From assembly GCA_021815205.1 (NCBI GenBank), contig JAKAHD010000002.1, positions 45,538-109,537 on the forward strand: a stretch of 64,000 nucleotides of DNA. Direction: 5' to 3'. The stretch is from a bacterium (GTDB lineage: Bacteria; Patescibacteriota; Minisyncoccia; UBA6257; GWB1-50-10). Each line of letters starts with the position of its first letter. Within the stretch, counting starts at the first letter, position 1. The notes beneath the pieces are model-generated. The model did not search any database, was not told where the DNA came from, and saw nothing but the letters and a program-made list of their open reading frames with translations. Below, piece by piece: positions 182-58,490 of the stretch. The translations under genes were made by a program, and so were the position numbers.

Positions 182-296
182 GCTACGAAATACGAATTAC
201 CTACGAATACACGAAAGAGATGACTTACAACTCACAATCGACAACTGGCAGCACGGCAATCGGATTCGTATATTCGTACTCAATTCGTAATTCGTA
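182..296. repeat. TACGAA-type intergenic imperfect palindrome (T-element copy 1)
   Basis: Left arm gctacgaaatacgaatt...tacgaatacacgaa, right arm attcgtatattcgta...aattcgtaattcgtag; ends ~10 nt before ATG at 306. Confidence 0.8.
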
Positions 297-2050: not shown

Positions 2051-2079
2051 TTGACAATTTTCCACCTCTTCGTTACCAT
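2051..2079 (+). promoter_or_regulatory. sigma70-like promoter upstream of infA
   Basis: TTGACA(2051-2056)-N17-TACCAT. Confidence 0.4.
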
Positions 2080-2091
2080 AGAACCTGCCTA

Positions 2092-2325
2092 TTGATGAAA
2101 CCATCACCGCAGCTTGTGAGAGTGGAAGGAAAGGTGATAGAGGCCCTGCCGGGTCTTCTCTTCCGCGTGATTGTGGGAAAAGAGGGGGAAGGAGGACACG
2201 AAGTCCTGGGGCATCTTGCGGGGAGGTTAAAATTGCACCGCATCCGCGTGATCCCGGGAGATCGGGTGATTCTCGAAATGGCGAACATGAACGATGCGAG
2301 GGGAAGGATCACTAGAAGGCTATAA
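2092..2325 (+). CDS. infA: translation initiation factor IF-1
   Basis: S1/OB-fold pattern (VEGKVIEALPG..FRV..G..V.GHLAG..R...IRVIPGDRV..E..), ~72 aa; TTG at 2092 or ATG at 2095. Confidence 0.85.
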   Translation: MMKPSPQLVRVEGKVIEALPGLLFRVIVGKEGEGGHEVLGHLAGRLKLHRIRVIPGDRVILEMANMNDARGRITRRL

Positions 2326-2527
2326 AAGGCGAAATCCCAAATACCAAATTTCAAATAACAAATAAATTCTGTCCCTTCGGTCATCCCTACGGGAGATGTC
2401 CCGGAGGGACAGATATCTCCCGCAGGGAGACCATTCTCGAAATCTAAAACCGGTAACATGTTTCTGATTTTGATGTTAGATTAGGTATTATTTGGAGCTT
2501 GGTGCTTGGAACTTGGAATCTTTCGAC

Positions 2528-2644
2528 ATGAAAGTACGCGCGTCGGTAAAAAAAATTTGCGAAGGCTGCAAAACCGTCCGCCGCAAAGGACGGCTTTATG
2601 TAATTTGCAAGAAAAACCCGAAGCATAAGCAGAGACAAGGCTAA
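2528..2644 (+). CDS. rpmJ: 50S ribosomal protein L36
   Basis: 38-aa [41 protein letters not shown] (absent from ORF track, <60 aa); C-x2-C...C-x4-H zinc ribbon; canonical position between infA and rpsM. Confidence 0.9.
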
Positions 2645-2791
2645 CGATAAAATCCGAAGCACGAAATCCGAAATTCGAAACAATAGTCAAAAATAAGAAA
2701 TAATAATGCTCAAAACACGTGTTTAGGATTTAGGAAATTTGGTATTGGAATTTGTTTCGTATTTCGATATTCGAATTTCGAATTTAATTGT

Positions 2792-3175
2792 ATGAGAGTA
2801 GCCGGTGTAAATATTCCCGATACTAAGAAGGTGCGGATCGCGCTTCGTTATATTTATGGCGTAGGTCCTACGAACGCGCTCGAAGTGTTGAAGATTTCTA
2901 AGATCGACCCCGAGAAGCACGCAAAGGACCTGACGCCCGAAGAGGTAAATAAAATCCAATCTTATTTTGAAAAACACATAAAGGTGGAGGGGGAACTGCG
3001 GCAGGTAGTGCGGCAGAACATCAACCGACTGAAAGACATAAAAGCCTACCGCGGCGTGAGGCATATGCGCCGCCTTCCAGTTCGGGGTCAGCGCACCAAG
3101 ACGAACTCGCGAACGGTGCGCGGAAACGTCCGGAAGACCGCAGGGAGCGGAAAGAGAAAAGTGGAACTCAAGTAA
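2792..3175 (+). CDS. rpsM: 30S ribosomal protein S13
   Basis: MRVAGVNIP..K.V..AL..IYG.G; conserved order rpmJ-rpsM-rpsK-rpsD-rpoA-rplQ. Confidence 0.95.
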   Translation: MRVAGVNIPDTKKVRIALRYIYGVGPTNALEVLKISKIDPEKHAKDLTPEEVNKIQSYFEKHIKVEGELRQVVRQNINRLKDIKAYRGVRHMRRLPVRGQRTKTNSRTVRGNVRKTAGSGKRKVELK

Positions 3176-3351
3176 CGAAATCCTAAGCACCAAATCCTAG
3201 ATTCTAAACAAATTCCAATGACAAAAACCCAAAACAACAGAACACATGTTTCGGTCATTATCATTTCGAATCTTGGTCATTGTTTAGGATTTATGTCCCT
3301 TCGGGACATCTCCCGTAGGGAGAGAAATTAGAATTTAGGATTTCGACTATT

Positions 3352-3806: not shown

Positions 3807-3846
3807 CACGAATATGCACGAATCATTCACGAATATCACGAATAGG
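3807..3846 (+). repeat. four direct CACGAAT repeats phased ~10-11 bp, filling the rpsK-rpsD spacer
   Basis: cacgaatatg cacgaatcatt cacgaatat cacgaatagg; spacings 10/11/9 bp (one helical turn); ends 6 nt before rpsD ATG. Confidence 0.75.
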
Positions 3847-4476: not shown

Positions 4477-5235
4477 ATGAAGTACTTGCATCTTAGTGAG
4501 ACAGTGGTCGTAAAAAAGATTTCCGAGAAGGATAACATCGGAGTATTCCATATTGAAGGATTGTATACGGGATACGGCACGACCCTTGGGAACGCGCTTC
4601 GGAGAGTGCTCCTCTCTTCGCTTCCAGGAGCGGCGATTACCCAAATCAAGATACAAGGAGTGGATCACGAGTTTTCGACGCTTCCCGGCATGATGGAAGA
4701 TGTCGTCGAATATACGCTGAACCTGAAAAAGGTGAGATTTGTGTTTAACGCGGAAGAGCCGCAGACCCTTTCTTTAAAGGTAAAAGGGGAACGCGAAGTA
4801 ACGGCGGCCGATATTGAATCTTCCCCGTTCGTGCAGGTAATCAATAAAGATCTGCATCTTGCAACGCTCACGAAAAAGTCCGCCGAACTCAACATGGAAC
4901 TTACCGTCGAGAAAGGATTGGGGTACGTAGTCTCCGAGATGCATCGCGTGGAGCGTCTCTCTGTAGGAACGGTGGTCTTGGACGCAATCTTCTCTCCCGT
5001 CGTGCGCGTTGCGTTCAAGGTCGAGGACATGCGCGTGGGAGACAGGACCAACTTCAATCGTTTGGAGCTTGAGATAGAAACGGATGGCTCGATCAGCCCC
5101 TCCGAGGCGCTCCATAAAGCGGGGAAGATCATGAAAGATCATTTTGAGAAGATAGCGGAGATAGAAGTGACTCCGGCGGCGCTCGCCGAGGAAGCGGAAG
5201 AAGAGAAAGAAAAGAAAACAAAAAAGAAGAAATAA
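4477..5235 (+). CDS. rpoA: DNA-directed RNA polymerase alpha subunit, N-terminal domain only (no alpha-CTD)
   Basis: alpha-NTD motifs (GYGTTLGNALRRVLLSS.PGAAI); 252 aa ending in an EEAEEEKEKKTKKKK tail; no HhH alpha-CTD. Confidence 0.9.
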   Translation: MKYLHLSETVVVKKISEKDNIGVFHIEGLYTGYGTTLGNALRRVLLSSLPGAAITQIKIQGVDHEFSTLPGMMEDVVEYTLNLKKVRFVFNAEEPQTLSLKVKGEREVTAADIESSPFVQVINKDLHLATLTKKSAELNMELTVEKGLGYVVSEMHRVERLSVGTVVLDAIFSPVVRVAFKVEDMRVGDRTNFNRLELEIETDGSISPSEALHKAGKIMKDHFEKIAEIEVTPAALAEEAEEEKEKKTKKKK

Positions 5236-5240
5236 ATTTT

Positions 5241-5352
5241 GCTACGAAATACGAAGGTAGTACGAATATACGAAATTATAGCTTACGATTTATATCACAT
5301 AACTAACAAGGAACGCGGATTCGTATATTCGTACACAATTCGTAATTCGTAG
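5241..5352. repeat. TACGAA-type intergenic imperfect palindrome (T-element copy 2)
   Basis: gctacgaaatacgaagg..tacgaatatacgaa / attcgtatattcgta..aattcgtaattcgtag between rpoA stop and rplQ start. Confidence 0.8.
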
Positions 5353-5361
5353 AGAAATCCT

Positions 5362-5715
5362 ATGCGTCATCTCAACAAGGGGAGAAAATTTGGTTTGAAG
5401 CGGGGCCCGAGGAGGGCGTTTTTGAGGGTACTCGCGAACAACCTTATTCGCCATGAACGCATCCGTACCACGGAGGCGAGAGCGAAAGAAATAAAAATGC
5501 TTGTAGAGCGCTACATTACCTATGGAAAGAAACAGAACTTGAGCGGCATGAGATTATTGCAGCAGAAGCTTCCGAAGGTCGCCGCATACAAGGTATACCA
5601 CGAACTTGCACCGCGTTATGCGGAGCGCAAGGGAGGTTATATAAGAATTTTGAAACAGACGAAGGCTCGGACACATGACGGCGCGAAGATGGTCGTGATC
5701 GAGTTTGTGAAGTAA
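5362..5715 (+). CDS. rplQ: 50S ribosomal protein L17
   Basis: MRHLNKGRK..R...HR.A..RN...L..HERI.TT..KAKE. Confidence 0.95.
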   Translation: MRHLNKGRKFGLKRGPRRAFLRVLANNLIRHERIRTTEARAKEIKMLVERYITYGKKQNLSGMRLLQQKLPKVAAYKVYHELAPRYAERKGGYIRILKQTKARTHDGAKMVVIEFVK

Positions 5716-5835
5716 TCGCGAATAACGCGAATGAATTCAAAATAATGCGAATACGATATAACGCATACGAATATGGAAACGGGTCGAATTACAACCATTC
5801 GCGTTCTTTGCTGTAATTTGCATTATTGGTGATAA
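5716..5835. repeat. GCGAAT/ATTCGC-type intergenic imperfect palindrome (variant of T-element family)
   Basis: cgcgaataacgcgaatgaattcaaaataatgcgaatacga ... accattcgcgttctttgctgtaatttgcattattgg between rplQ and rplM. Confidence 0.6.
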
Positions 5836-6196: not shown

Positions 6197-6652
6197 ATGA
6201 CAACGACAACTCCAAAAACGAAAAAAACTTCGGCGGGAAATTCCGGAAAAGAGCGGTATCTCGAGGCGGTCGGAAGAAGAAAGACGGCGGTTGCGCGCGT
6301 CCGCCTTTTTACGGGGCGTCCAAAATCAAGCAAGGAACCAGAGATGATGGTGAATGGAAAGGGATTTACCGAATACTTCGGTCTCGTAAAACAGCAGGAG
6401 ATCGTACGCGCTCCGTTTCAGGCGCTCTCGCTTAAAGAGTACAACGCGACCGCGCTCGTGAAGGGCGGGGGCGTGCATGCGCAGGCGGAGGCGATCCGTC
6501 TCGGGCTCTCGAGGACGCTCGTCGCGATGAACCCCATCTGGCGCTCGAAATTGAAATCGCTCGGATTTTTGAAACGCGATCCCCGCAAAGTGGAACGCAA
6601 AAAGTACGGTCTGCGAAAAGCAAGAAGACCTCAGCAATGGCGTAAACGTTAA
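6197..6652 (+). CDS. rpsI: 30S ribosomal protein S9
   Basis: C-terminal GGG..AQA.A.RLG..RAL...KRDPR..ERKKYG..KARR..Q..KR. Confidence 0.95.
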   Translation: MTTTTPKTKKTSAGNSGKERYLEAVGRRKTAVARVRLFTGRPKSSKEPEMMVNGKGFTEYFGLVKQQEIVRAPFQALSLKEYNATALVKGGGVHAQAEAIRLGLSRTLVAMNPIWRSKLKSLGFLKRDPRKVERKKYGLRKARRPQQWRKR

Positions 6653-6716
6653 AAAAATCCCCTATCGGGGGATTTTTCTTTACGCCATTGCTGAGAGGAG
6701 GGGGTGATGGGGGAGG
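6634..6716 (+). repeat. 83-bp direct repeat copy 1 (rpsI 3' end + terminator + G-rich hairpin)
   Basis: caatggcgtaaacgttaaaaaaatcccctatcgggggatttttctttacgccattgctgagaggagggggtgatgggggaggg; identical again at 6795-6877. Confidence 0.85.
6652..6681 (+). terminator. rho-independent terminator of rpsI
   Basis: aaatcccc-tatc-ggggattt stem-loop then T-run; duplicated at ~6813-6842. Confidence 0.75.
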
Positions 6717-6794
6717 GCGGGAAATGAGCCCTCCCCCAAGCCGGAGCTCGCGAACCGAATGGTTCGCGGGAGTCCGCCAAAGGCGGACGACGCA

Positions 6795-6877
6795 ACAATG
6801 GCGTAAACGTTAAAAAAATCCCCTATCGGGGGATTTTTCTTTACGCCATTGCTGAGAGGAGGGGGTGATGGGGGAGG
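6795..6877 (+). repeat. 83-bp direct repeat copy 2 (includes second terminator copy)
   Basis: Perfect repeat of 6634-6716, 161 bp downstream. Confidence 0.85.
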
Positions 6878-6880
6878 GGC

Positions 6881-6972
6881 GGATCGCTGTATTGAAAAAG
6901 TGTGCGCTCCAAGACCGCCTGCCTGCGCAGGCAGGCGAGGCCGGTCTTACCCACTTTTTCAATACAGCGAAT
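6881..6972. repeat. ~90-nt near-perfect hairpin/palindrome at the convergent junction
   Basis: gctgtattgaaaaagtg...cactttttcaatacagc arms (17/17), aagaccg/cggtctt, central perfect palindrome cctgcctgcgcaggcagg. Confidence 0.7.
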
Positions 6973-7814: not shown

Positions 7815-7979
7815 TGTTGTGGAGAGAAATGAACGACCTTTTGAGACAGTATAGCAGATTCGAAATAACAAATCACAGGCGTAAATCCTCAATAATGACC
7901 AAAATCAGAAATTCCAATTATCAAAACACGCGTTTTGAATTTTGTATTTTTTAGGATTTAGAATTTTGAGTTTAGGATT

Positions 7980-12829: not shown

Positions 12830-13873
12830 ATGAGCACCGTTCTCATTATTATCGGCCTCGCGCTTCTTATCTTCGTGCACGAGGCGGGACACTTCGTGAG
12901 CGCGAAGCTTATGAAGATGAAGGTGGAGGAGTTTGGATTCGGATTTCCTCCGCGGCTTTGGGGGAAGAAAATAGGGGAGACACTGTATAGTGTGAACGCA
13001 CTCCCCTTCGGAGGGTTCGTGCGCCTCTTGGGCGAAGATGAGGAAACGAAGACAAAAGGAGGGTTTATGGATCAGCCGTTCCGGAGACGGATGCCGGTAC
13101 TCCTCGCCGGGGTTCTGATGAATTTCGTGATCGGGTGGTTCCTCTTCAGCGTCGTCTTTATGGCGGGCGCGCCCCGGCACCTTGCAATCGCGGATGTTTT
13201 ACCTGACTCTCCCGCGTATACCGCGGGAATAAAGAGCGGAGATATTGTGACGGAAGCGGTAATTGGGAGCGAGACGCTCAAAGATCCGATTGATGTGGCC
13301 GTATTCGTGAATGCGGTGAGGCGTTCTGCCGCGCCAAACGTAGCGCTCACGATTCTTCGCGGAAAGGACTCTCACGTACTCACGGTAACAAAACGAGTGA
13401 ACCCGCCTGCAGGCGAAGGCGCGCTCGGGGTGAGTCTCGCGGAGATCGGCATCGCGCCCCAGCCGTTCTTCGGGAGTTTTCTCTCGGGGATCGGCGAAGC
13501 ATGGAACACGGTCGTGCTCGTCGTGCAGGGACTTGTGCAGTTTATCGGCGGGTTGTTCATGAATCCCGGGGCGACCATACAGGAGGTTGCGGGTCCCGTA
13601 GGAATTGTATTCCTTGCGAGCCAGGCGGGCGCCTTGGGGTTCGTCTACTTCCTCAATCTTTTAGCGCTCATCTCGATCAATCTCGCGGTGCTGAACCTTA
13701 TCCCGTTCCCGGCACTTGACGGAGGGCGGGCGCTCTTTCTTATCATCGAGAAGATCAAGGGGAGCCCCGTCTCCAAAAAGTTGCAGATAATCGTGAACGG
13801 CGCAGGATTTGCGGTCCTCATTGCACTCATGGTACTGGTCACGATTCAGGACATTTCAAGAGTTACCCGCTAG
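12830..13873 (+). CDS. rseP: RIP zinc metalloprotease RseP (site-2 protease, M50) with one PDZ domain
   Basis: HEAGHF (HExxH) in first TM; PDZ segment; start at MSTVLIIIG directly after frr stop. Confidence 0.85.
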   Translation: MSTVLIIIGLALLIFVHEAGHFVSAKLMKMKVEEFGFGFPPRLWGKKIGETLYSVNALPFGGFVRLLGEDEETKTKGGFMDQPFRRRMPVLLAGVLMNFVIGWFLFSVVFMAGAPRHLAIADVLPDSPAYTAGIKSGDIVTEAVIGSETLKDPIDVAVFVNAVRRSAAPNVALTILRGKDSHVLTVTKRVNPPAGEGALGVSLAEIGIAPQPFFGSFLSGIGEAWNTVVLVVQGLVQFIGGLFMNPGATIQEVAGPVGIVFLASQAGALGFVYFLNLLALISINLAVLNLIPFPALDGGRALFLIIEKIKGSPVSKKLQIIVNGAGFAVLIALMVLVTIQDISRVTR

Positions 13874-13981
13874 AAGCAGATCACGCAGATAAGACGCGGA
13901 TATACGCAGAAATGTATCCGCGTGTTTCTGCGCCGCTTCAGCGTTATCTGCTTCTACGATTCGTATGTTACAATTACCGAT

Positions 13982-14986: not shown

Positions 14987-15173
14987 AAAAAAAGATTTTC
15001 ACAGATGGGAGACAGATTTCCACCGAATCACAGATGCGTCGTCACCTATTACCTGTTTTGATTTGTAGTTATCCGTGAGATCTGTTTGAGGCATAATGAA
15101 TACAATACAGAAATACTGAAGCCCCAAAATACCAAAACCGTGAGCAGTATCATCACGCGGAGACCCTATGACA

Positions 15174-15197
15174 GGTGCTATGCTATAGCATAGCACC
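15174..15197. repeat. perfect 24-bp palindrome ggtgctatgctatagcatagcacc (P family)
   Basis: Exact self-complementarity; one of 7 copies in the window. Confidence 0.9.
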
Positions 15198-15213
15198 CTA
15201 GAAAAGCATGTAT

Positions 15214-15948: not shown

Positions 15949-15962
15949 GCGGAGGTAGTGTG

Positions 15963-15996
15963 CCATAGGTGCTATGACATGTCATAGCACCTATGG
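15963..15996. repeat. perfect 34-bp palindrome ccataggtgctatgacatgtcatagcacctatgg (P family)
   Basis: Exact self-complementarity, 15 nt after stop of 15307..15948. Confidence 0.9.
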
Positions 15997-16720: not shown

Positions 16721-16739
16721 GTACAGAAGGAAGAACAGG

Positions 16740-16767
16740 AGGGTGCTATGACATGTCATAGCACCCT
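16740..16767. repeat. perfect 28-bp palindrome agggtgctatgacatgtcatagcaccct (P family)
   Basis: Exact self-complementarity 20 nt after the stop of the TrpR-like gene. Confidence 0.9.
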
Positions 16768-18050: not shown

Positions 18051-18053
18051 TGA

Positions 18054-18147
18054 CCGCTGATTCACCCCCCACACCCATGCATGGGTGTGGGGGTGAAGCT
18101 GATTTTCGCCGATACATTATCCGCGGTCATCAGATCACAATCAGCGG
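18054..18147. repeat. MITE-like element Z with nested Y palindrome (18063-18095)
   Basis: ccgctgatt...[caccccccacacccatgcatgggtgtgggggtg]gaagctgattttcgccgata...aatcagcgg; Z copy without insert at 46987-47036. Confidence 0.65.
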
Positions 18148-18203
18148 AGATCAGTTATGAAGAGCGTTGAAAGGCGGCAAAACCTCTGCTACAATTCCTC
18201 CGT

Positions 18204-23632: not shown

Positions 23633-23745
23633 GCTACGAAATACGAATTTTCTACGAATATACGAATCTCCACGTCGTTCTGATTTACCTCCGGCGGAGA
23701 AGACCCTTCGTGTTCGTATATTCATAATCAATTCGTAATTCGTAG
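23633..23745. repeat. TACGAA-type intergenic imperfect palindrome (T-element copy 3)
   Basis: gctacgaaatacgaattttctacgaatatacgaa / ttcgtatattcataatcaattcgtaattcgtag between PBP2 and greA. Confidence 0.8.
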
Positions 23746-24214: not shown

Positions 24215-24320
24215 GCTACGAAATACGAATTTTGTATGAATATACGAAAATACGAGATCCTTCACTTCGTTCAGGATGACGGCTGTATTCGTATATTCGT
24301 AAGTGATTCGTATTTCGTAG
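24215..24320. repeat. TACGAA-type intergenic imperfect palindrome (T-element copy 4; W-element fragment in centre)
   Basis: gctacgaaatacgaattttgtatgaatatacgaaaatacga...attcgtatattcgtaagtgattcgtatttcgtag; centre gatccttcacttcgttcaggatgac. Confidence 0.8.
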
Positions 24321-25786: not shown

Positions 25787-25901
25787 GCTACGCAATACGA
25801 ATTTTGTAGGAATATACGAAAACGAAGAATATGCAAGCAGCGTGTTACTGAGCGGTATGTGTTGTACATTCGTATATTCGTAATTAATTCGTATTTCGTA
25901 G
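25787..25901. repeat. TACGAA-type intergenic imperfect palindrome (T-element copy 5)
   Basis: gctacgcaatacgaattttgtaggaatatacgaaaacgaa ... attcgtatattcgtaattaattcgtatttcgtag between lysS and serS. Confidence 0.8.
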
Positions 25902-29588: not shown

Positions 29589-29692
29589 GGACAAATTTTA
29601 AATTCTAAATTTCAATTGAATGAACGAATTTTAAAATGTAATAAGTTGAAATTGATTTAAAATTTAGAACTTAAAATTTAAAATTATCGCAT
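29589..29692. terminator. AT-rich ~100-bp inverted repeat between convergent ftsQ and PMT genes (likely bidirectional terminator)
   Basis: aaattttaaattctaaatttcaattgaatgaac ... gttgaaattgatttaaaatttagaacttaaaatttaaaatt. Confidence 0.5.
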
Positions 29693-31570: not shown

Positions 31571-31683
31571 CAGAATTAAGGTTTATCGGACACCAGCATA
31601 TATCGGCTTTATCAGCACACATCAGCGTCAAAAATCCCCTCGGCTTAATTATGATATCAACTCGAAATAACAACGTGGAAAAT

Positions 31684-33976: not shown

Positions 33977-34132
33977 AGTCGAAATAATAATAAAAATAAC
34001 AAATCACAAATTCCAGATAACAAATAAGTTCCAATATTCAAACTCTCATCGGTGTTTTCGTGAATCGTTTGGATATTTAATTATTGCAATTTATTTGAGA
34101 TTTGGTGCTTGGTATTTGGAAATTAAACAACT

Positions 34133-42447: not shown

Positions 42448-42798
42448 ATGAATATCTCGTTTAACCAGTTTAAAGAATTGGATTTAAGGATCGCGAAGAT
42501 TCTTGAGGCGTCGCGGGTCGAAGGATCGGAGAAGCTCGTGAAACTTCTCATTGATATGGGCGGTGAAAAGCGTGAGCTCGTTGCGGGAATAGGCAAGGCA
42601 TACGATCCGGACGTGCTCGTGGGGAGGGAGATTGCGGTTGTTGCGAATCTTGAGTCGAAAATCTTCACCCTTCGACTCAGCTCAGGGCAAGTGGCGCTCG
42701 AAAGCCAGGGGATGCTTCTTGCGGCACACGGTGCGCAGGGTGAACCCGTACTCCTTGTGCCCGAGAGAGAAGTGCCGCCGGGAAGCACAATCACGTAG
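42448..42798 (+). CDS. tRNA-binding protein (CsaA/Trbp111-like OB fold)
   Basis: F.ELDLR...I.EA......KL.KL.ID.G...R.LV.GI...Y.P..LVG...AVV.NL; start at MNISFNQF. Confidence 0.75.
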   Translation: MNISFNQFKELDLRIAKILEASRVEGSEKLVKLLIDMGGEKRELVAGIGKAYDPDVLVGREIAVVANLESKIFTLRLSSGQVALESQGMLLAAHGAQGEPVLLVPEREVPPGSTIT

Positions 42799-42929
42799 CA
42801 AAATTTTTAATTTGAAATTTACAATTTTCAATCAAATTCTAATTTTATAATGCGTTAATGTTTAAATATTATAACATTATTGCATTTAAAATTGATTAAA
42901 AATTAAGAACTAAAAATTAAAAATTCTTA
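42799..42929. repeat. AT-rich ~130-bp inverted repeat (same family as 29589-29692)
   Basis: aatttttaatttgaaatttacaattttcaatcaaattctaatttt ... aaaattgattaaaaattaagaactaaaaattaaaaatt. Confidence 0.5.
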
Positions 42930-46549: not shown

Positions 46550-46986
46550 CTCCTTCTCGCTTATTTTTCCCGGATTGTATCGAAGTTCAACCTCGCTATT
46601 TTTAGGATAGTGAAGTTGAACTTCGATAGGGTTTCCGGGTTCCGTATGTTTCATCAAACCTCGTGTTGACACGCGAGAGCGGAATGCTATCATTCTCTAC
46701 GGTTCGTGCCAATGTGAGGAGGTCTTGTCGTGTTCGAATTCGCACACGGCCGTTGCGGAGGAGGGTGCGACAGGCATTCGATCATTTGTATTGAGCTAAC
46801 GTATACGTTTCACTAAGACAGAGGATCATACTACGATCTCCGAAACGGTGTACCAAGTACTTCATATTTCGAGTTGCTCTTTGTTTATTTTTTATTGACA
46901 TTGTCCTCGAGATTTCTTTTGAAGGAACGGAATATCGTCGAAGGAGGCCTTGGTGTGCCTCTGTTTTAGTTTGTTCTCTTAGATTA

Positions 46987-47036
46987 CCGCTGATTGCGAG
47001 CTGATTTTCGCGGATATGGCATCTGCGGCAATCAGC
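46987..47036. repeat. MITE-like element Z (copy without nested insert)
   Basis: ccgctgattgcgagctgattttcgcggatatggcatctgcggcaatcagc. Confidence 0.55.
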
Positions 47037-47102
47037 TTCACCCCGTTAGAAGTTGCGCAGAAATAATGATGCGTCTTCTTCTATGATGCGATTATCATAA
47101 AT

Positions 47103-47229
47103 CCCGTGAGAAGCTCACATGGGGTAGTAAACCCCGCGTTCGCCACGGGACGAGGCATTCACCCCCACACTAAATGAGTGTGGGGGTTCATCCCTGTGGC
47201 ACGCCCGGGGTTTTCTGCTTCTCACGGGA
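47103..47229. repeat. MITE-like element X with nested Y palindrome (47161-47187)
   Basis: tcccgtgagaagctcacatggggtagtaaaccccgcgttcgccacggg[acgaggcattcacccccacactaaatgagtgtgggggttcatccctgtggcacgcccgg]ggttttctgcttctcacggga vs uninterrupted copy at 10104-10171. Confidence 0.75.
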
Positions 47230-50112: not shown

Positions 50113-50222
50113 CACGCATGAATATACACTACTATCCACGAATATCACGAATACGGAACGAAAACGTTTGCGTAATCGAGTATTATTCGTGGCATTCGTG
50201 TGCAATTCGTGCGCATTCGTGC
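50113..50222. repeat. CACGAAT/ATTCGTG-type imperfect palindrome in groES leader (variant of T-element family)
   Basis: cacgcatgaatat..ccacgaatatcacgaatacggaacgaaaacg ... attcgtggcattcgtgtgcaattcgtgcgcattcgtgcg, ending 3 nt before groES ATG. Confidence 0.7.
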
Positions 50223-50224
50223 GT

Positions 50225-50521: not shown

Positions 50522-50635
50522 ATAATTATATCAGCATACATCTGCCTTATCAGTATAAATCAGCGTCGGCCCCTCATCTGTAAGAGAACGCTGATCAATG
50601 CTGATAGAGCCGATAGATGCTGATAACGAATGAAT

Positions 50636-54739: not shown

Positions 54740-54741
54740 CG

Positions 54742-54852
54742 CACGAATGGGCACAAATCGCCCACGAATATCACAAATTCGTATGAGTGGTATTCGTGTT
54801 CGTCGACCGGCGGGATTTGTGTCGCATTTGTGGTTTATTAGTGTATATTCGT
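54742..54852. repeat. CACGAAT/ATTCGTG-type imperfect palindrome in htpX leader
   Basis: gcacgaatgggcacaaatcgcccacgaatatcacaaattcgtatgagtggtattcgtgttcg ... tatattcgtgcg ending at htpX start. Confidence 0.65.
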
Positions 54853-55765: not shown

Positions 55766-55881
55766 TTCATCAGGATCCATCTCAAAAGTACTCAGAATTA
55801 TGCTCTGGGACTCCTCGAATGCGCCAAGGAAGTTCAACTTCTTTAGAGAGTCGAACTTCGAAGACACTCCGCGTTGAAACA

Positions 55882-55915
55882 CCGAGGGTGCTATGACATG
55901 TCATAGCACCCTCGG
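55882..55915. repeat. perfect 34-bp palindrome ccgagggtgctatgacatgtcatagcaccctcgg (P family)
   Basis: Exact self-complementarity. Confidence 0.9.
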
Positions 55916-57560: not shown

Positions 57561-57635
57561 AGTTTCGTGATGACCTGAACTGAAAGCGGTTCCATAATTT
57601 TTGACCGGAGATTTTGAAAATATGATTTCTGCCCC

Positions 57636-57661
57636 AGGTGCTATGCTATAGCATAGCACCT
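57636..57661. repeat. perfect 26-bp palindrome aggtgctatgctatagcatagcacct (P family)
   Basis: Exact self-complementarity. Confidence 0.9.
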
Positions 57662-57708
57662 AATGTATTTCAATACCTGTAGACATTGTTATCCTCTCTC
57701 CTGCGAAA

Positions 57709-58224: not shown

Positions 58225-58245
58225 GTAGTATCGAGTAATTGGTGA

Positions 58246-58271
58246 GGGTGTTATGACGCGTCATAACACCC
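58246..58271. repeat. perfect 26-bp palindrome gggtgttatgacgcgtcataacaccc (P family variant)
   Basis: Exact self-complementarity. Confidence 0.85.
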
Positions 58272-58490
58272 CAAATTTCTTGCGTGGTACCCCAGTGGTA
58301 AATAGGATGGATAAAAAATATAAGAACCCGGGATTGCTCCTGAGTTCTTTTCGTATCACCTCATAAATAAGCCGCGTATTTGATTTTACATCTTGCGGGA
58401 TGTAGAGTAACGAAACTGGAAGAGTCGCATTGCGCCTCATCGGCGCATCCGCCGCTGAGACGAAAGCAGTAAATAAGATGTACTACAAAA

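Follow-up and report, generated by a model that had tools for sequence, protein, structure and literature searches.

TACGAAT palindromes in a Patescibacteria contig: probable members of a cross-phylum family of small foldback insertion elements with constrained arms

The stretch of DNA analyzed here (hereafter, the window) comprises 64,000 nucleotides (nt) of contig JAKAHD010000002.1 from the Patescibacteria genome assembly GCA_021815205.1 (positions 45,538 to 109,537, forward strand); its nearest named relatives, as judged by GreA and L17, belong to Jorgensenbacteria, Paceibacterota and Minisyncoccia. Five gaps between co-directional genes in the window are each occupied by an imperfect palindrome of roughly 110 nt that is built of TACGAA(T) units. 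These palindromes had been picked out in an earlier, sequence-only reading of the window, and both their positions and the gene context given there (a hypothetical gene to the next gene, also hypothetical; rpoA to rplQ; PBP2 to greA to lysS to serS) are confirmed, the former by the unit arrays and the aligned arms, and the latter by Pfam annotation. In window coordinates, the unit arrays of the five copies, which are 103-113 nt long, are arranged as follows.

184..296, plus strand: TACGAAT foldback copy 1; left arm 184-215 (outer pair 184-197, spacer 198-201, inner pair 202-215), centre 216-264, right arm 265-296; located between a truncated open reading frame (ORF) with its stop codon at 174-176 and a hypothetical gene of 557 amino acids (aa) that starts at 306; predicted hairpin of -36.3 kcal/mol, z -6.3
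5243..5351, plus strand: TACGAAT foldback copy 2, in the rpoA/rplQ gap; left arm 5243-5274, centre 5275-5319, right arm 5320-5351; z -6.4
23635..23744, plus strand: TACGAAT foldback copy 3, in the PBP2/greA gap; left arm 23635-23666, centre 23667-23712, right arm 23713-23744
24217..24319, plus strand: TACGAAT foldback copy 4, in the greA/lysS gap; left arm 24217-24248, centre 24249-24287, right arm 24288-24319; predicted hairpin of -49.7 kcal/mol, z -8.3
25789..25900, plus strand: TACGAAT foldback copy 5, in the lysS/serS gap; left arm 25789-25820, centre 25821-25868, right arm 25869-25900

All five copies follow the same plan, with two 32-nt arms, each containing four TACGAA units at a spacing of 7/11/8, mirrored around a centre of 39-49 nt. 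From the outside inwards, an arm consists of an outer pair, TACGAA-n-TACGAAT, a 4-nt spacer and an inner pair, TACGAATATACGAA; the centre and then the mirror image follow. The 4-nt spacers are usually not complementary between the left and the right arm, and a flanking C/G or GC/GC lengthens the palindrome by 1-2 nt. When one mismatch is allowed, the window contains 11 matches to TACGAAWWTACGAA, compared to 0.19 expected, a count that none of 100 shuffles reached, and all 11 fall within the five elements. The arms are highly similar between copies (88% pairwise identity for the left arms and 90% for the right ones), whereas the identity of the centres is 54%, compared to 52 +/- 4% for shuffled centres, so that no homology is detectable among the latter. 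The centres, with a GC content of 46%, have shifted towards the base composition of the genome (52% in the window), whereas the arms, at 30%, have not, and in this respect the elements look both foreign and old. The predicted fold of every copy is a single long hairpin with interruptions (-36 to -50 kcal/mol, with z ranging from -4.5 to -8.3), and pairing is predicted only between the two arms; a single arm is a set of direct TACGAA repeats without self-pairing. In four of the copies, the stem begins 2-6 nt past the upstream stop codon and finishes 8-19 nt ahead of the next start; the copy at 184-296 was left out of these distances because its upstream gene runs beyond the window edge. The arms disrupt short-read assemblies: the Logan contigs of the source organism begin inside the left arm, that is, the assemblies break there.

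The family extends far beyond this genome. When one genome per species was searched for the pattern GAATAYACGAA-N35-55-TTCGTATATTC, which does not require the outer pairs, at least 112 loci were obtained, compared to about 3 chance matches by our back-of-the-envelope estimate. The counts and carriers that follow, up to the placement relative to genes, are those among the matches listed. The outer pairs and, hence, the full architecture are present in 67 elements, including the five copies in the window. According to the record labels, the carriers within Patescibacteria are Uhr-, Falkow-, Moran-, Komeili-, Lipton-, Brenner-, Terry-, Doudna-, Portnoy-, Wildermuth- and Saccharibacteria; Bacteroidota account for at least about 18 genomes, some with contigs of 360-550 kb; and Omnitrophota account for at least 4 metagenome-assembled genomes (MAGs), with the phylum membership taken solely from the record labels. 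A further MAG labelled 'Bdellovibrionales', in which the genes flanking the element are 75% identical to those of Moranbacteria, is probably mislabelled, and a match in Pedobacter (L023), which lacks the outer pairs, may be unrelated to the family. The elements form lineage-specific subfamilies, such that Bacteroidia copies have a common AACAGCC spacer or GGGGAACGAAT ends and Uhrbacteria copies begin with GTTACGAAT, which argues against cross-contamination of bins. The YfhO-family gene adjoining a Flavobacteriaceae copy has named homologs only in Bacteroidia, Bacteroidetes or Sphingobacteriaceae, and a Por_Secre_tail protein is encoded in the neighbourhood of a relative of this gene. Among 100 placeable cases, 93 are intergenic (69 in co-directional, 16 in divergent and 8 in convergent gaps) and 7 lie within ORFs called by a crude gene caller; this mix is about what would be obtained by random intergenic placement in such genomes. 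Clustering of 837 proteins from the at least 112 loci revealed no family present in more than 5 loci, and the neighbours that do recur (ssb, ftsA/ftsZ, rplB, frr) are housekeeping genes that appear as often as would be expected of small genomes. The combination of arms that are nearly identical in three phyla with freely variable centres is unusual for bacterial mini-repeats.

A distinct but related nested palindrome, (G)GAGTAATCGC-GAATATACGAAT-...AAATATACGAAT|TCGTATATT...-ATTCGTATATTC-GCGATTACTC, occurs in Saccharibacteria, Brennerbacteria and other members of the candidate phyla radiation (CPR). It contains four copies of the 12-mer inner-pair motif, without the outer pairs, and is scattered between housekeeping genes (L018, L028, L038, L042, L043, L050, L053, L081, L100, L102, L109).

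Relatives in which GreA is 80% identical to that of the window organism have exactly the same gene order (hisS, mreB, mreC, PBP2, greA, lysS, serS, grpE-dnaK), but at the junctions that carry elements in the window, the genes overlap or are closely spaced in these genomes. There is a 19-nt overlap between PBP2 and greA in one lineage (L195-L197) and a 3-nt gap in the other (L198, L199); the two genes also overlap, without an element, in L200. In the GreA-80% relatives, greA and lysS either abut or are 16 nt apart, and lysS and serS are 11-31 nt apart. Absence from relatives with identical gene order is the observation that the sequence-only reading had itself named as speaking for recent selfish spread and not for function. 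Among the options it offered (RNA processing sites, attenuators, protein-binding arrays, selfish mini-elements), this absence favours the last one over an ancestral regulatory site.

Other junctions document decay and turnover of the elements. L113 (LysS 84% identical) has an ortholog of the greA-lysS element that shares its idiosyncratic spacers, and only the right arm is left at this junction in L200 (GreA 88% identical). Between lysS and serS, there is a solo right arm, TATATTTCATCCGTAATTCGTAGAGAAATCA-ATG, in L195, a short remnant in L113, and nothing in L198. The rpoA-rplQ gap contains a TACGAAT element in the window, an element of the AATCCTAA family in two relatives and a CACGAAT/CACAAAT element in a third one, that is, three different repeat families across four lineages. 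A similar comparison was possible in Bacteroidota, where the genes flanking the L060 copy are only 3 nt apart in L212. There are also apparent bursts: a marine Patescibacteria MAG harbors at least 9 copies, in both orientations and with sharp ends, the centres of which are roughly 80-85% identical (estimated by eye from the alignment), and two of these copies contain a nested 22-nt hairpin insert; an Uhrbacteria MAG carries a long-centre subfamily with conserved centres of about 110 nt. Together, the missing elements, solo arms, bursts and junction polymorphism are characteristic of a mobile, non-autonomous repeat. Such elements could be used as strain markers for uncultured lineages.

Many copies of the marine burst family (L006, L068, L082, L086, L104) have an extra partial terminus, ATCTACGAAATTAC, 3-6 nt upstream, which may be a footprint or a preferred target.

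The same observations bear on an explanation without any mobility, namely, that the palindromes grew locally, by replication slippage of heptamers combined with template switching between the arms, and that the similarity between loci is convergent. In this case, centre lengths clustering near 38, 45 and 52 nt, in steps of 7, and lineage-specific unit families built on one plan would be expected, as is indeed seen, and a passage of PMC4679880 cites heptamers as the commonest long simple repeats in bacteria. Local growth would not, however, account for the same 32-nt arm with the 7/11/8 sub-spacing in three phyla and at many loci per genome, nor for bursts with conserved centres in both orientations and nested insertions. 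For the TACGAAT family, we therefore regard this explanation as very unlikely and give it next to no credence.

The five copies thus probably belong to a widespread, cross-phylum family of small, non-coding, non-autonomous foldback insertion elements with constrained arms, resembling miniature inverted-repeat transposable elements (MITEs) and REPINs. The ends of such an element would be arrays of four (T/C/G)ACGAAT hexamer units, and the segment between the arms would be interchangeable cargo or filler. Copies would insert, or persist, only where a few bases separate neighbouring genes in very compact genomes, and there they would be co-transcribed with the operon; the RNA is predicted to form an interrupted hairpin of roughly 30 base pairs, in which the 110-nt insert would be looped out, leaving the stop codon near the next ribosome-binding region. 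Later, internal deletion would reduce the elements to single arms. The genomes of CPR bacteria are among the most compact known; nevertheless, dozens of 100-nt palindromes are tolerated in this one, in gaps between essential genes whose counterparts overlap in relatives.

Several results weigh against classifying these repeats as ordinary insertion elements. The first group concerns the means of mobility. No direct repeat that could represent a target-site duplication flanks any of the 67 elements, and the apparent AT...AT around the copies in one genome could equally well be the palindrome extending further. The fetched loci, about 1.4 Mb in total, contain no pair of arms with a gene between them, and neither an autonomous element nor a transposase was found there; a search of 72,556 plasmids produced no match; and there were only 2 matches among the IMG/VR viral contigs, neither of them an autonomous element.

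The second group concerns the arms, which change too slowly in place. In the greA-lysS copies of the window and L113, the arms differ at 5 of 68 positions, compared to 45% of 182 fourfold sites in lysS, and the centres cannot be aligned. The arms of L058 and L103 are about 90% identical, against a 54-64% divergence at fourfold sites, and their centres are 66% identical in a global alignment, little over the roughly 52% shuffled baseline. For L069 and L098, the divergence of the element as a whole is about 10%, compared to 37-49% at fourfold sites. The arms of orthologous copies are kept about six times better than synonymous sites and are, accordingly, either constrained or self-correcting. 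Such retention is unexpected for decaying selfish DNA and points to a host-level or sequence-specific constraint, so that the functional or protein-binding options of the sequence-only reading stay alive alongside the selfish one. This conservation in situ, like the cross-phylum distribution and the decay to single arms, is beyond what the window alone could show. Furthermore, changes relative to the consensus are one-sided in 50 cases and compensatory in 7; the latter exceed the rough expectation of about 0.6 for independently changing arms, but the predominance of one-sided changes indicates that it is mainly the sequence that is conserved, not the pairing alone. A sense-strand RNA signature was not detected either: both differences between the window and L113 in the paired region preserve G.U pairs on the sense strand, but in the larger sample, G.U (10) shows no excess over A.C (11). 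Whether the flanking genes are co-directional, divergent or convergent, outer-arm pairing amounts to 90-92%, leaving a translational-coupling constraint without specific support, and solo arms persist beside start codons without a partner.

Directly to the left of the orthologous elements upstream of ftsA in L069 and L098, there is a perfect DnaA-box-like 9-mer, TTATCCACA (about 5719-5727 and about 5558-5566, respectively), which is conserved between the two loci.

Three reasons for the constancy of the arms are possible, and the data do not decide among them: folding could be kept so that the insertion remains harmless; the arms could correct each other during replication, quasi-palindrome template switching, in which one arm is corrected against the other, being an established mutational process; or a protein could read the hexamers. 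That several unrelated hexamer families in one genome are built on the same four-plus-four plan speaks for a structural or mutational cause and not for a dedicated reader of each family, whereas the constancy of the TACGAAT arm across phyla points in the opposite direction. If the arms are not read by a protein, they provide a clean natural case of a palindrome maintaining itself against mutation pressure (30% GC arms in a 52% GC genome).

Should the third reason apply, the hexamer arrays would be sites of a putative sequence-specific DNA- or RNA-binding protein that is common to the phyla or carried horizontally, and the elements would constitute a dispersed regulatory or structural network, with mobility just spreading the sites. 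The conservation of sequence over pairing, the preservation of the arms far above neutral sites in every gene context and the retention of solo arms all fit this explanation. So does the design of the arrays, with units of 6-7 nt at a flexible spacing of 7-11 nt, four per arm, in both the TACGAAT and the CACGAAT families. Within a 563-kb sample of Parcubacteria DNA taken without regard to the element, ACGAA/CGAAT are the most often clustered 5-mers, and there is a precedent in the role proposed, albeit never shown, for the TAACTGA heptamer repeats (PMC4679880). However, no candidate protein was found, and no gene co-localizes with the elements across the at least 112 loci; the units of solo arms have no consistent orientation relative to the downstream start; the distribution is patchy across phyla, with sites missing from close relatives; and the arrays of GCAGAW, ATCAGC and ACAGAT built on the same plan would imply several readers in a genome of roughly 1 Mb. 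On balance, we consider this explanation unlikely. Equally tentative is a more specific proposal, under which the ACGAAT arrays are recognition sites of one putative conserved nucleic-acid-binding or DNA-processing protein that is common to, or exchanged among, Patescibacteria, Bacteroidota and Omnitrophota; the elements would then represent either (a) a new class of foldback transposons with multiple subterminal hexamers and no target-site duplication, or (b) a horizontally seeded post-transcriptional or chromosome-organizing network. If a protein does read the arms, it would be either a novel mobility enzyme or a previously undescribed global regulator, in organisms in which gene regulation is barely understood.

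The position of the elements relative to genes was measured in 41 co-directional cases. The first paired base is a median of 4 nt past the stop codon (28 of the 41 within 0-6 nt) and the last paired base a median of 9 nt ahead of the next start, and a right end of the form ...CGTAGAGAA-N4-6-ATG recurs in many genomes. Given the footprint of the ribosome, a terminating ribosome must open the base of a stem placed so close to the stop codon. If the element is transcribed, the opened stem would, in this model, free the strand at the ribosome-binding region of the next gene, and the closed stem would draw the stop and the start together; under the foldback insertion scenario, the fold might thereby make a 110-nt insertion tolerable in operons of formerly overlapping or abutting genes. 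The persistence of solo arms implies, nevertheless, that folding is not indispensable.

The same geometry could be taken to mean that the hairpins themselves are selected by the host, as sites of processing by RNase III or other enzymes, as stabilizers of mRNA, as attenuators, or as devices that sequester the ribosome-binding region until the upstream gene is translated. The hairpins are very stable, the base of the stem is next to the stop codon, the 3' strand, with its recurrent right end, lies where a ribosome-binding site would fall, and some hairpin element is found at rpoA-rplQ in all 4 lineages examined; the two G.U-preserving differences between the window and L113 point in the same direction. 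Yet, the same junctions are free of elements in close relatives, the G.U bias disappears in the larger sample, and convergent and divergent gaps are occupied as well, with equal pairing. In addition, a constraint on structure only would not yield nearly identical stem sequences across phyla. A search with 4,227 Rfam models at the gathering threshold recovered only two tRNAs in the window, and the best permissive match on the elements was to a plant microRNA model, with 25 bits against a threshold of 195. Selection by the host for an operon RNA hairpin seems, therefore, rather improbable. Intrinsic termination was also considered and rejected: the stems have a GC content of 30%, with AGAGAA... 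and not a T run after them, and a terminator scan did not flag the elements.

A different function for the right end would be that of an outward-facing cassette, in which each arm combines a promoter with a 5' untranslated region, TATATT of the inner pair serving as the -10 element and GTAGAGAA as the ribosome-binding region, so that the upstream gene is terminated or insulated and transcription of the neighbour is restarted. TATATT matches the -10 consensus in 5 of 6 positions, including A2 and T6, the solo arms of L195 and L200 start exactly at TATATT and extend to the start codon, and GTAGAGAA is recurrent 4-9 nt ahead of ATG. There is, however, no conserved -35 element or TG extension; a scan with the sigma-70 consensus flagged only 1 of the 10 arms, with the total number of hits within the shuffle expectation; the arms of the CACGAAT family lack a -10-like hexamer; and transcription from the left arm would run into the upstream gene in antisense. 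We find a promoter cassette highly unlikely.

The sequence-only reading had also listed four variants with CACGAAT or GCGAAT units. All four exist, although only some are complete palindromes.

3807..3843, plus strand: solo array of four CACGAAT units at a spacing of 10/11/9 in the rpsK/rpsD gap, a half-element without an inverted partner
about 5716..5835, plus strand: looser palindrome of GCGAAT/TACGAAT units in the rplQ/rplM gap
about 50113..50224, plus strand: foldback element of CACGAAT units between the divergent relA/spoT and groES genes
about 54740..54834, plus strand: foldback element of CACGAAT/CACAAAT units between a LemA-family gene and htpX (peptidase M48); -43.1 kcal/mol

In relatives, rpsK and rpsD are joined as TAAC|TATG without a spacer, and the window has 45 nt of CACGAAT units inserted between the same bases. 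The rplQ/rplM junction measures 2 nt in L201 and 29 nt in L206, and is filled with an unrelated 203-nt spacer in L204. In the groES element, the right arm, ATTCGTG x4 (50186-50224), stops 1 nt short of the groES start, and the left arm is partly degenerate. With the five TACGAAT copies, these variants make up the nine elements that had been counted in the 64 kb; this number is an underestimate because most of the longer intergenic gaps of the window contain some palindromic repeat, several of which are built of other hexamer units on the same four-plus-four plan.

The unrelated hexamers arranged in this way in the same genome are GCAGAW, ATCAGC and ACAGAT. Among the fetched loci, their arrays were found only in this genome or, under a strict array search, nowhere. 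Hairpins with four such units per arm, at a spacing of 9-12 nt, are located at 13871-13956, 14987-15110, 31571-31650 and 50522-50629 in the window and at 272-405 and 8621-8735 of L210. Nested insertions, in which a GC-rich hairpin (CACCCCCCACACCC...GGGTGTGGGGGTG or CCCCTCACATAA...TTATGTGAGGGG) lies within a palindrome of GCTGAT or GCAGA units, are found at 18051-18203 and 46982-47160 of the window and at 272-405 of L210.

Two additional types of palindromes are dispersed through the window. One is a family of six perfect or nearly perfect intergenic palindromes of 24-30 nt, GGTGCTATG(AC/CT)ATGTCATAGCACC (15167-15199, 15961-15993, 16735-16767, 55880-55912, 57630-57662 and 58240-58272), with a seventh copy ~5 kb upstream of the window (L210, roughly 5170-5200). 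The other type consists of AT-rich palindromes of AATCC/TAAA-type units, at 3194-3351 (rpsM-rpsK), 2332-2369, 7893-7979, 29589-29683, 33977-34132 and 42795-42929; the rpsM-rpsK copy is orthologous to one in the relative L204, and members of this family, which has a conserved centre (...CATGTTTCGGTCATTAT...), also occupy rpoA-rplQ and infA-rpsM in relatives.

Several other features of the window deserve mention. A 91-nt segment is present twice (6632-6722 and 6793-6883), 161 nt apart and with 97% identity, in a 376-nt convergent gap with an extreme predicted structure of -202 kcal/mol. RpoA (4477-5235) is just 252 aa long, compared to 251-253 aa in relatives, and consists of the N-terminal and insert domains followed by a lysine- and glutamate-rich tail; no Pfam match to the alpha C-terminal domain was obtained. 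At 2073-3193, the longest minus-strand ORFs are spurious; the gene calls of the source contig assign infA (about 2095-2325) and rpsM (2792-3175) to the plus strand here, and the 466-nt gap that separates the two is rich in repeats.

Some known systems with a superficial resemblance to the TACGAAT elements can be set aside. Integron attC sites have a GTTRRRY core, which is absent from the ends CTACGAA.../...TTCGTAG, and follow mobile cassette genes next to an integrase, whereas the genes flanking the elements (rpoA, rplQ, greA, lysS, serS) are housekeeping genes in conserved synteny. TIGR-Tas arrays do not fit because the copies are single and dispersed, one per gap, contain no box C/D units and have no recurrent neighbour family that could be a Tas candidate. 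The consensus sequences of CIRCE, of LexA/ArgR/Fur-type operators and of parC-type iterons are not known to resemble the hexamers, and dispersal between housekeeping genes is unlike a regulon.

The sequence-only reading had called the elements ERIC-like, which holds as an analogy. ERIC elements, or IRUs, are about 100-130 nt (or about 70-127 nt) long, lie in transcribed intergenic regions, are conserved across genera and would act, if at all, as RNA hairpins; to our knowledge, neither their origin nor the agent of their mobility has been established. The present elements are likewise non-coding imperfect palindromes that are intergenic within operons, here 103-113 nt long, in co-directional gaps and with strong predicted hairpins. 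The arms are, however, tandem hexamer arrays, which ERIC arms are not; the centre is variable, whereas the ERIC core is conserved; and the family spans phyla, whereas ERIC is not known outside one family of Gammaproteobacteria. A blastn search (word size 11) with copy 4 against 5,426 complete genomes of E. coli, which carry ERIC and REP/BIME, found no match at E <= 0.01. Together with the tandem-hexamer arms, this result rules out membership in the ERIC family.

Similarly to the MITEs of bacteria, such as Correia/NEMIS of Neisseria, RUP and Nezha, the elements are small and non-coding, have terminal inverted repeats and are present in many copies near genes. MITEs are co-transcribed with their neighbours and sometimes supply expression signals; they have target-site duplications, conserved interiors and a recognizable parent insertion sequence, and none of these three was found here. 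In architecture alone, and by analogy only, short tandem or subterminal repeats at inverted ends around a variable middle are reminiscent of eukaryotic foldback and hAT elements. Those elements, for example, FB of Drosophila and, among the hAT elements, Ac/Ds, with AAACGG motifs, and Hermes, with GTGGC, are of kilobase scale and have known transposases, with the short motifs read by a multimeric transposase.

The closest architecture is that of REPINs, which are doublets of REP sequences mobilized by RAYT transposases (PMC3116915, PMC3337134, PMC3733652). Both groups have an inverted doublet with a freer spacer, a hairpin, multiple intergenic copies, singlet remnants and no target duplication (PMC3116915). 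The REP unit (20-40 nt) is itself a short palindrome, in contrast to the arm described here, which is an array of direct repeats without self-pairing. REP sequences have GTAG (or CGTC) at the 5' end; many copies of the present family also contain GTAG, in ends of the form CTAC...GTAG, but at the outer 3' end of the arm, and the Bacteroidota and Uhrbacteria subfamilies end differently (GGGGAACG..., GTTACG...). Furthermore, REPs are species-specific and co-evolve with their RAYT, whereas the arms analyzed here are the same across phyla. No RAYT (Y1 HUH transposase) turned up in the 64 kb of the window plus 10 kb of the source genome, the ORFs of which were only partly scanned.

With respect to distribution, the nearest parallel is provided by the TAACTGA heptamer repeats of Beggiatoaceae, Cyanobacteria and Bacteroidetes, which occur as 2-6 direct repeats in intergenic regions, often a few nt ahead of start codons, including those of ribosomal-protein genes (PMC4679880, MacGregor 2015). 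For these repeats, horizontal spread 'with no evident mechanism' has been proposed and a binding protein is suspected (PMC4679880). Both families are patchy across distant phyla and close to start codons. The unit is different, however, and the TAACTGA repeats are direct only, with one inverted case among 170 sets (PMC4679880), whereas the arrays described here are always mirrored pairs around a spacer; moreover, the present family displays insertion polymorphism and bursts, which are typical of discrete mobile units. Searches of the literature with the exact arm sequences returned unrelated eukaryotic probe sequences only, and we found no description of the TACGAAT family in Rfam or in the searchable literature. 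We therefore assign the family to the small palindromic mobile repeats, as a variant set apart from ERIC, REP/REPIN, the classical MITE families, attC and TIGR.

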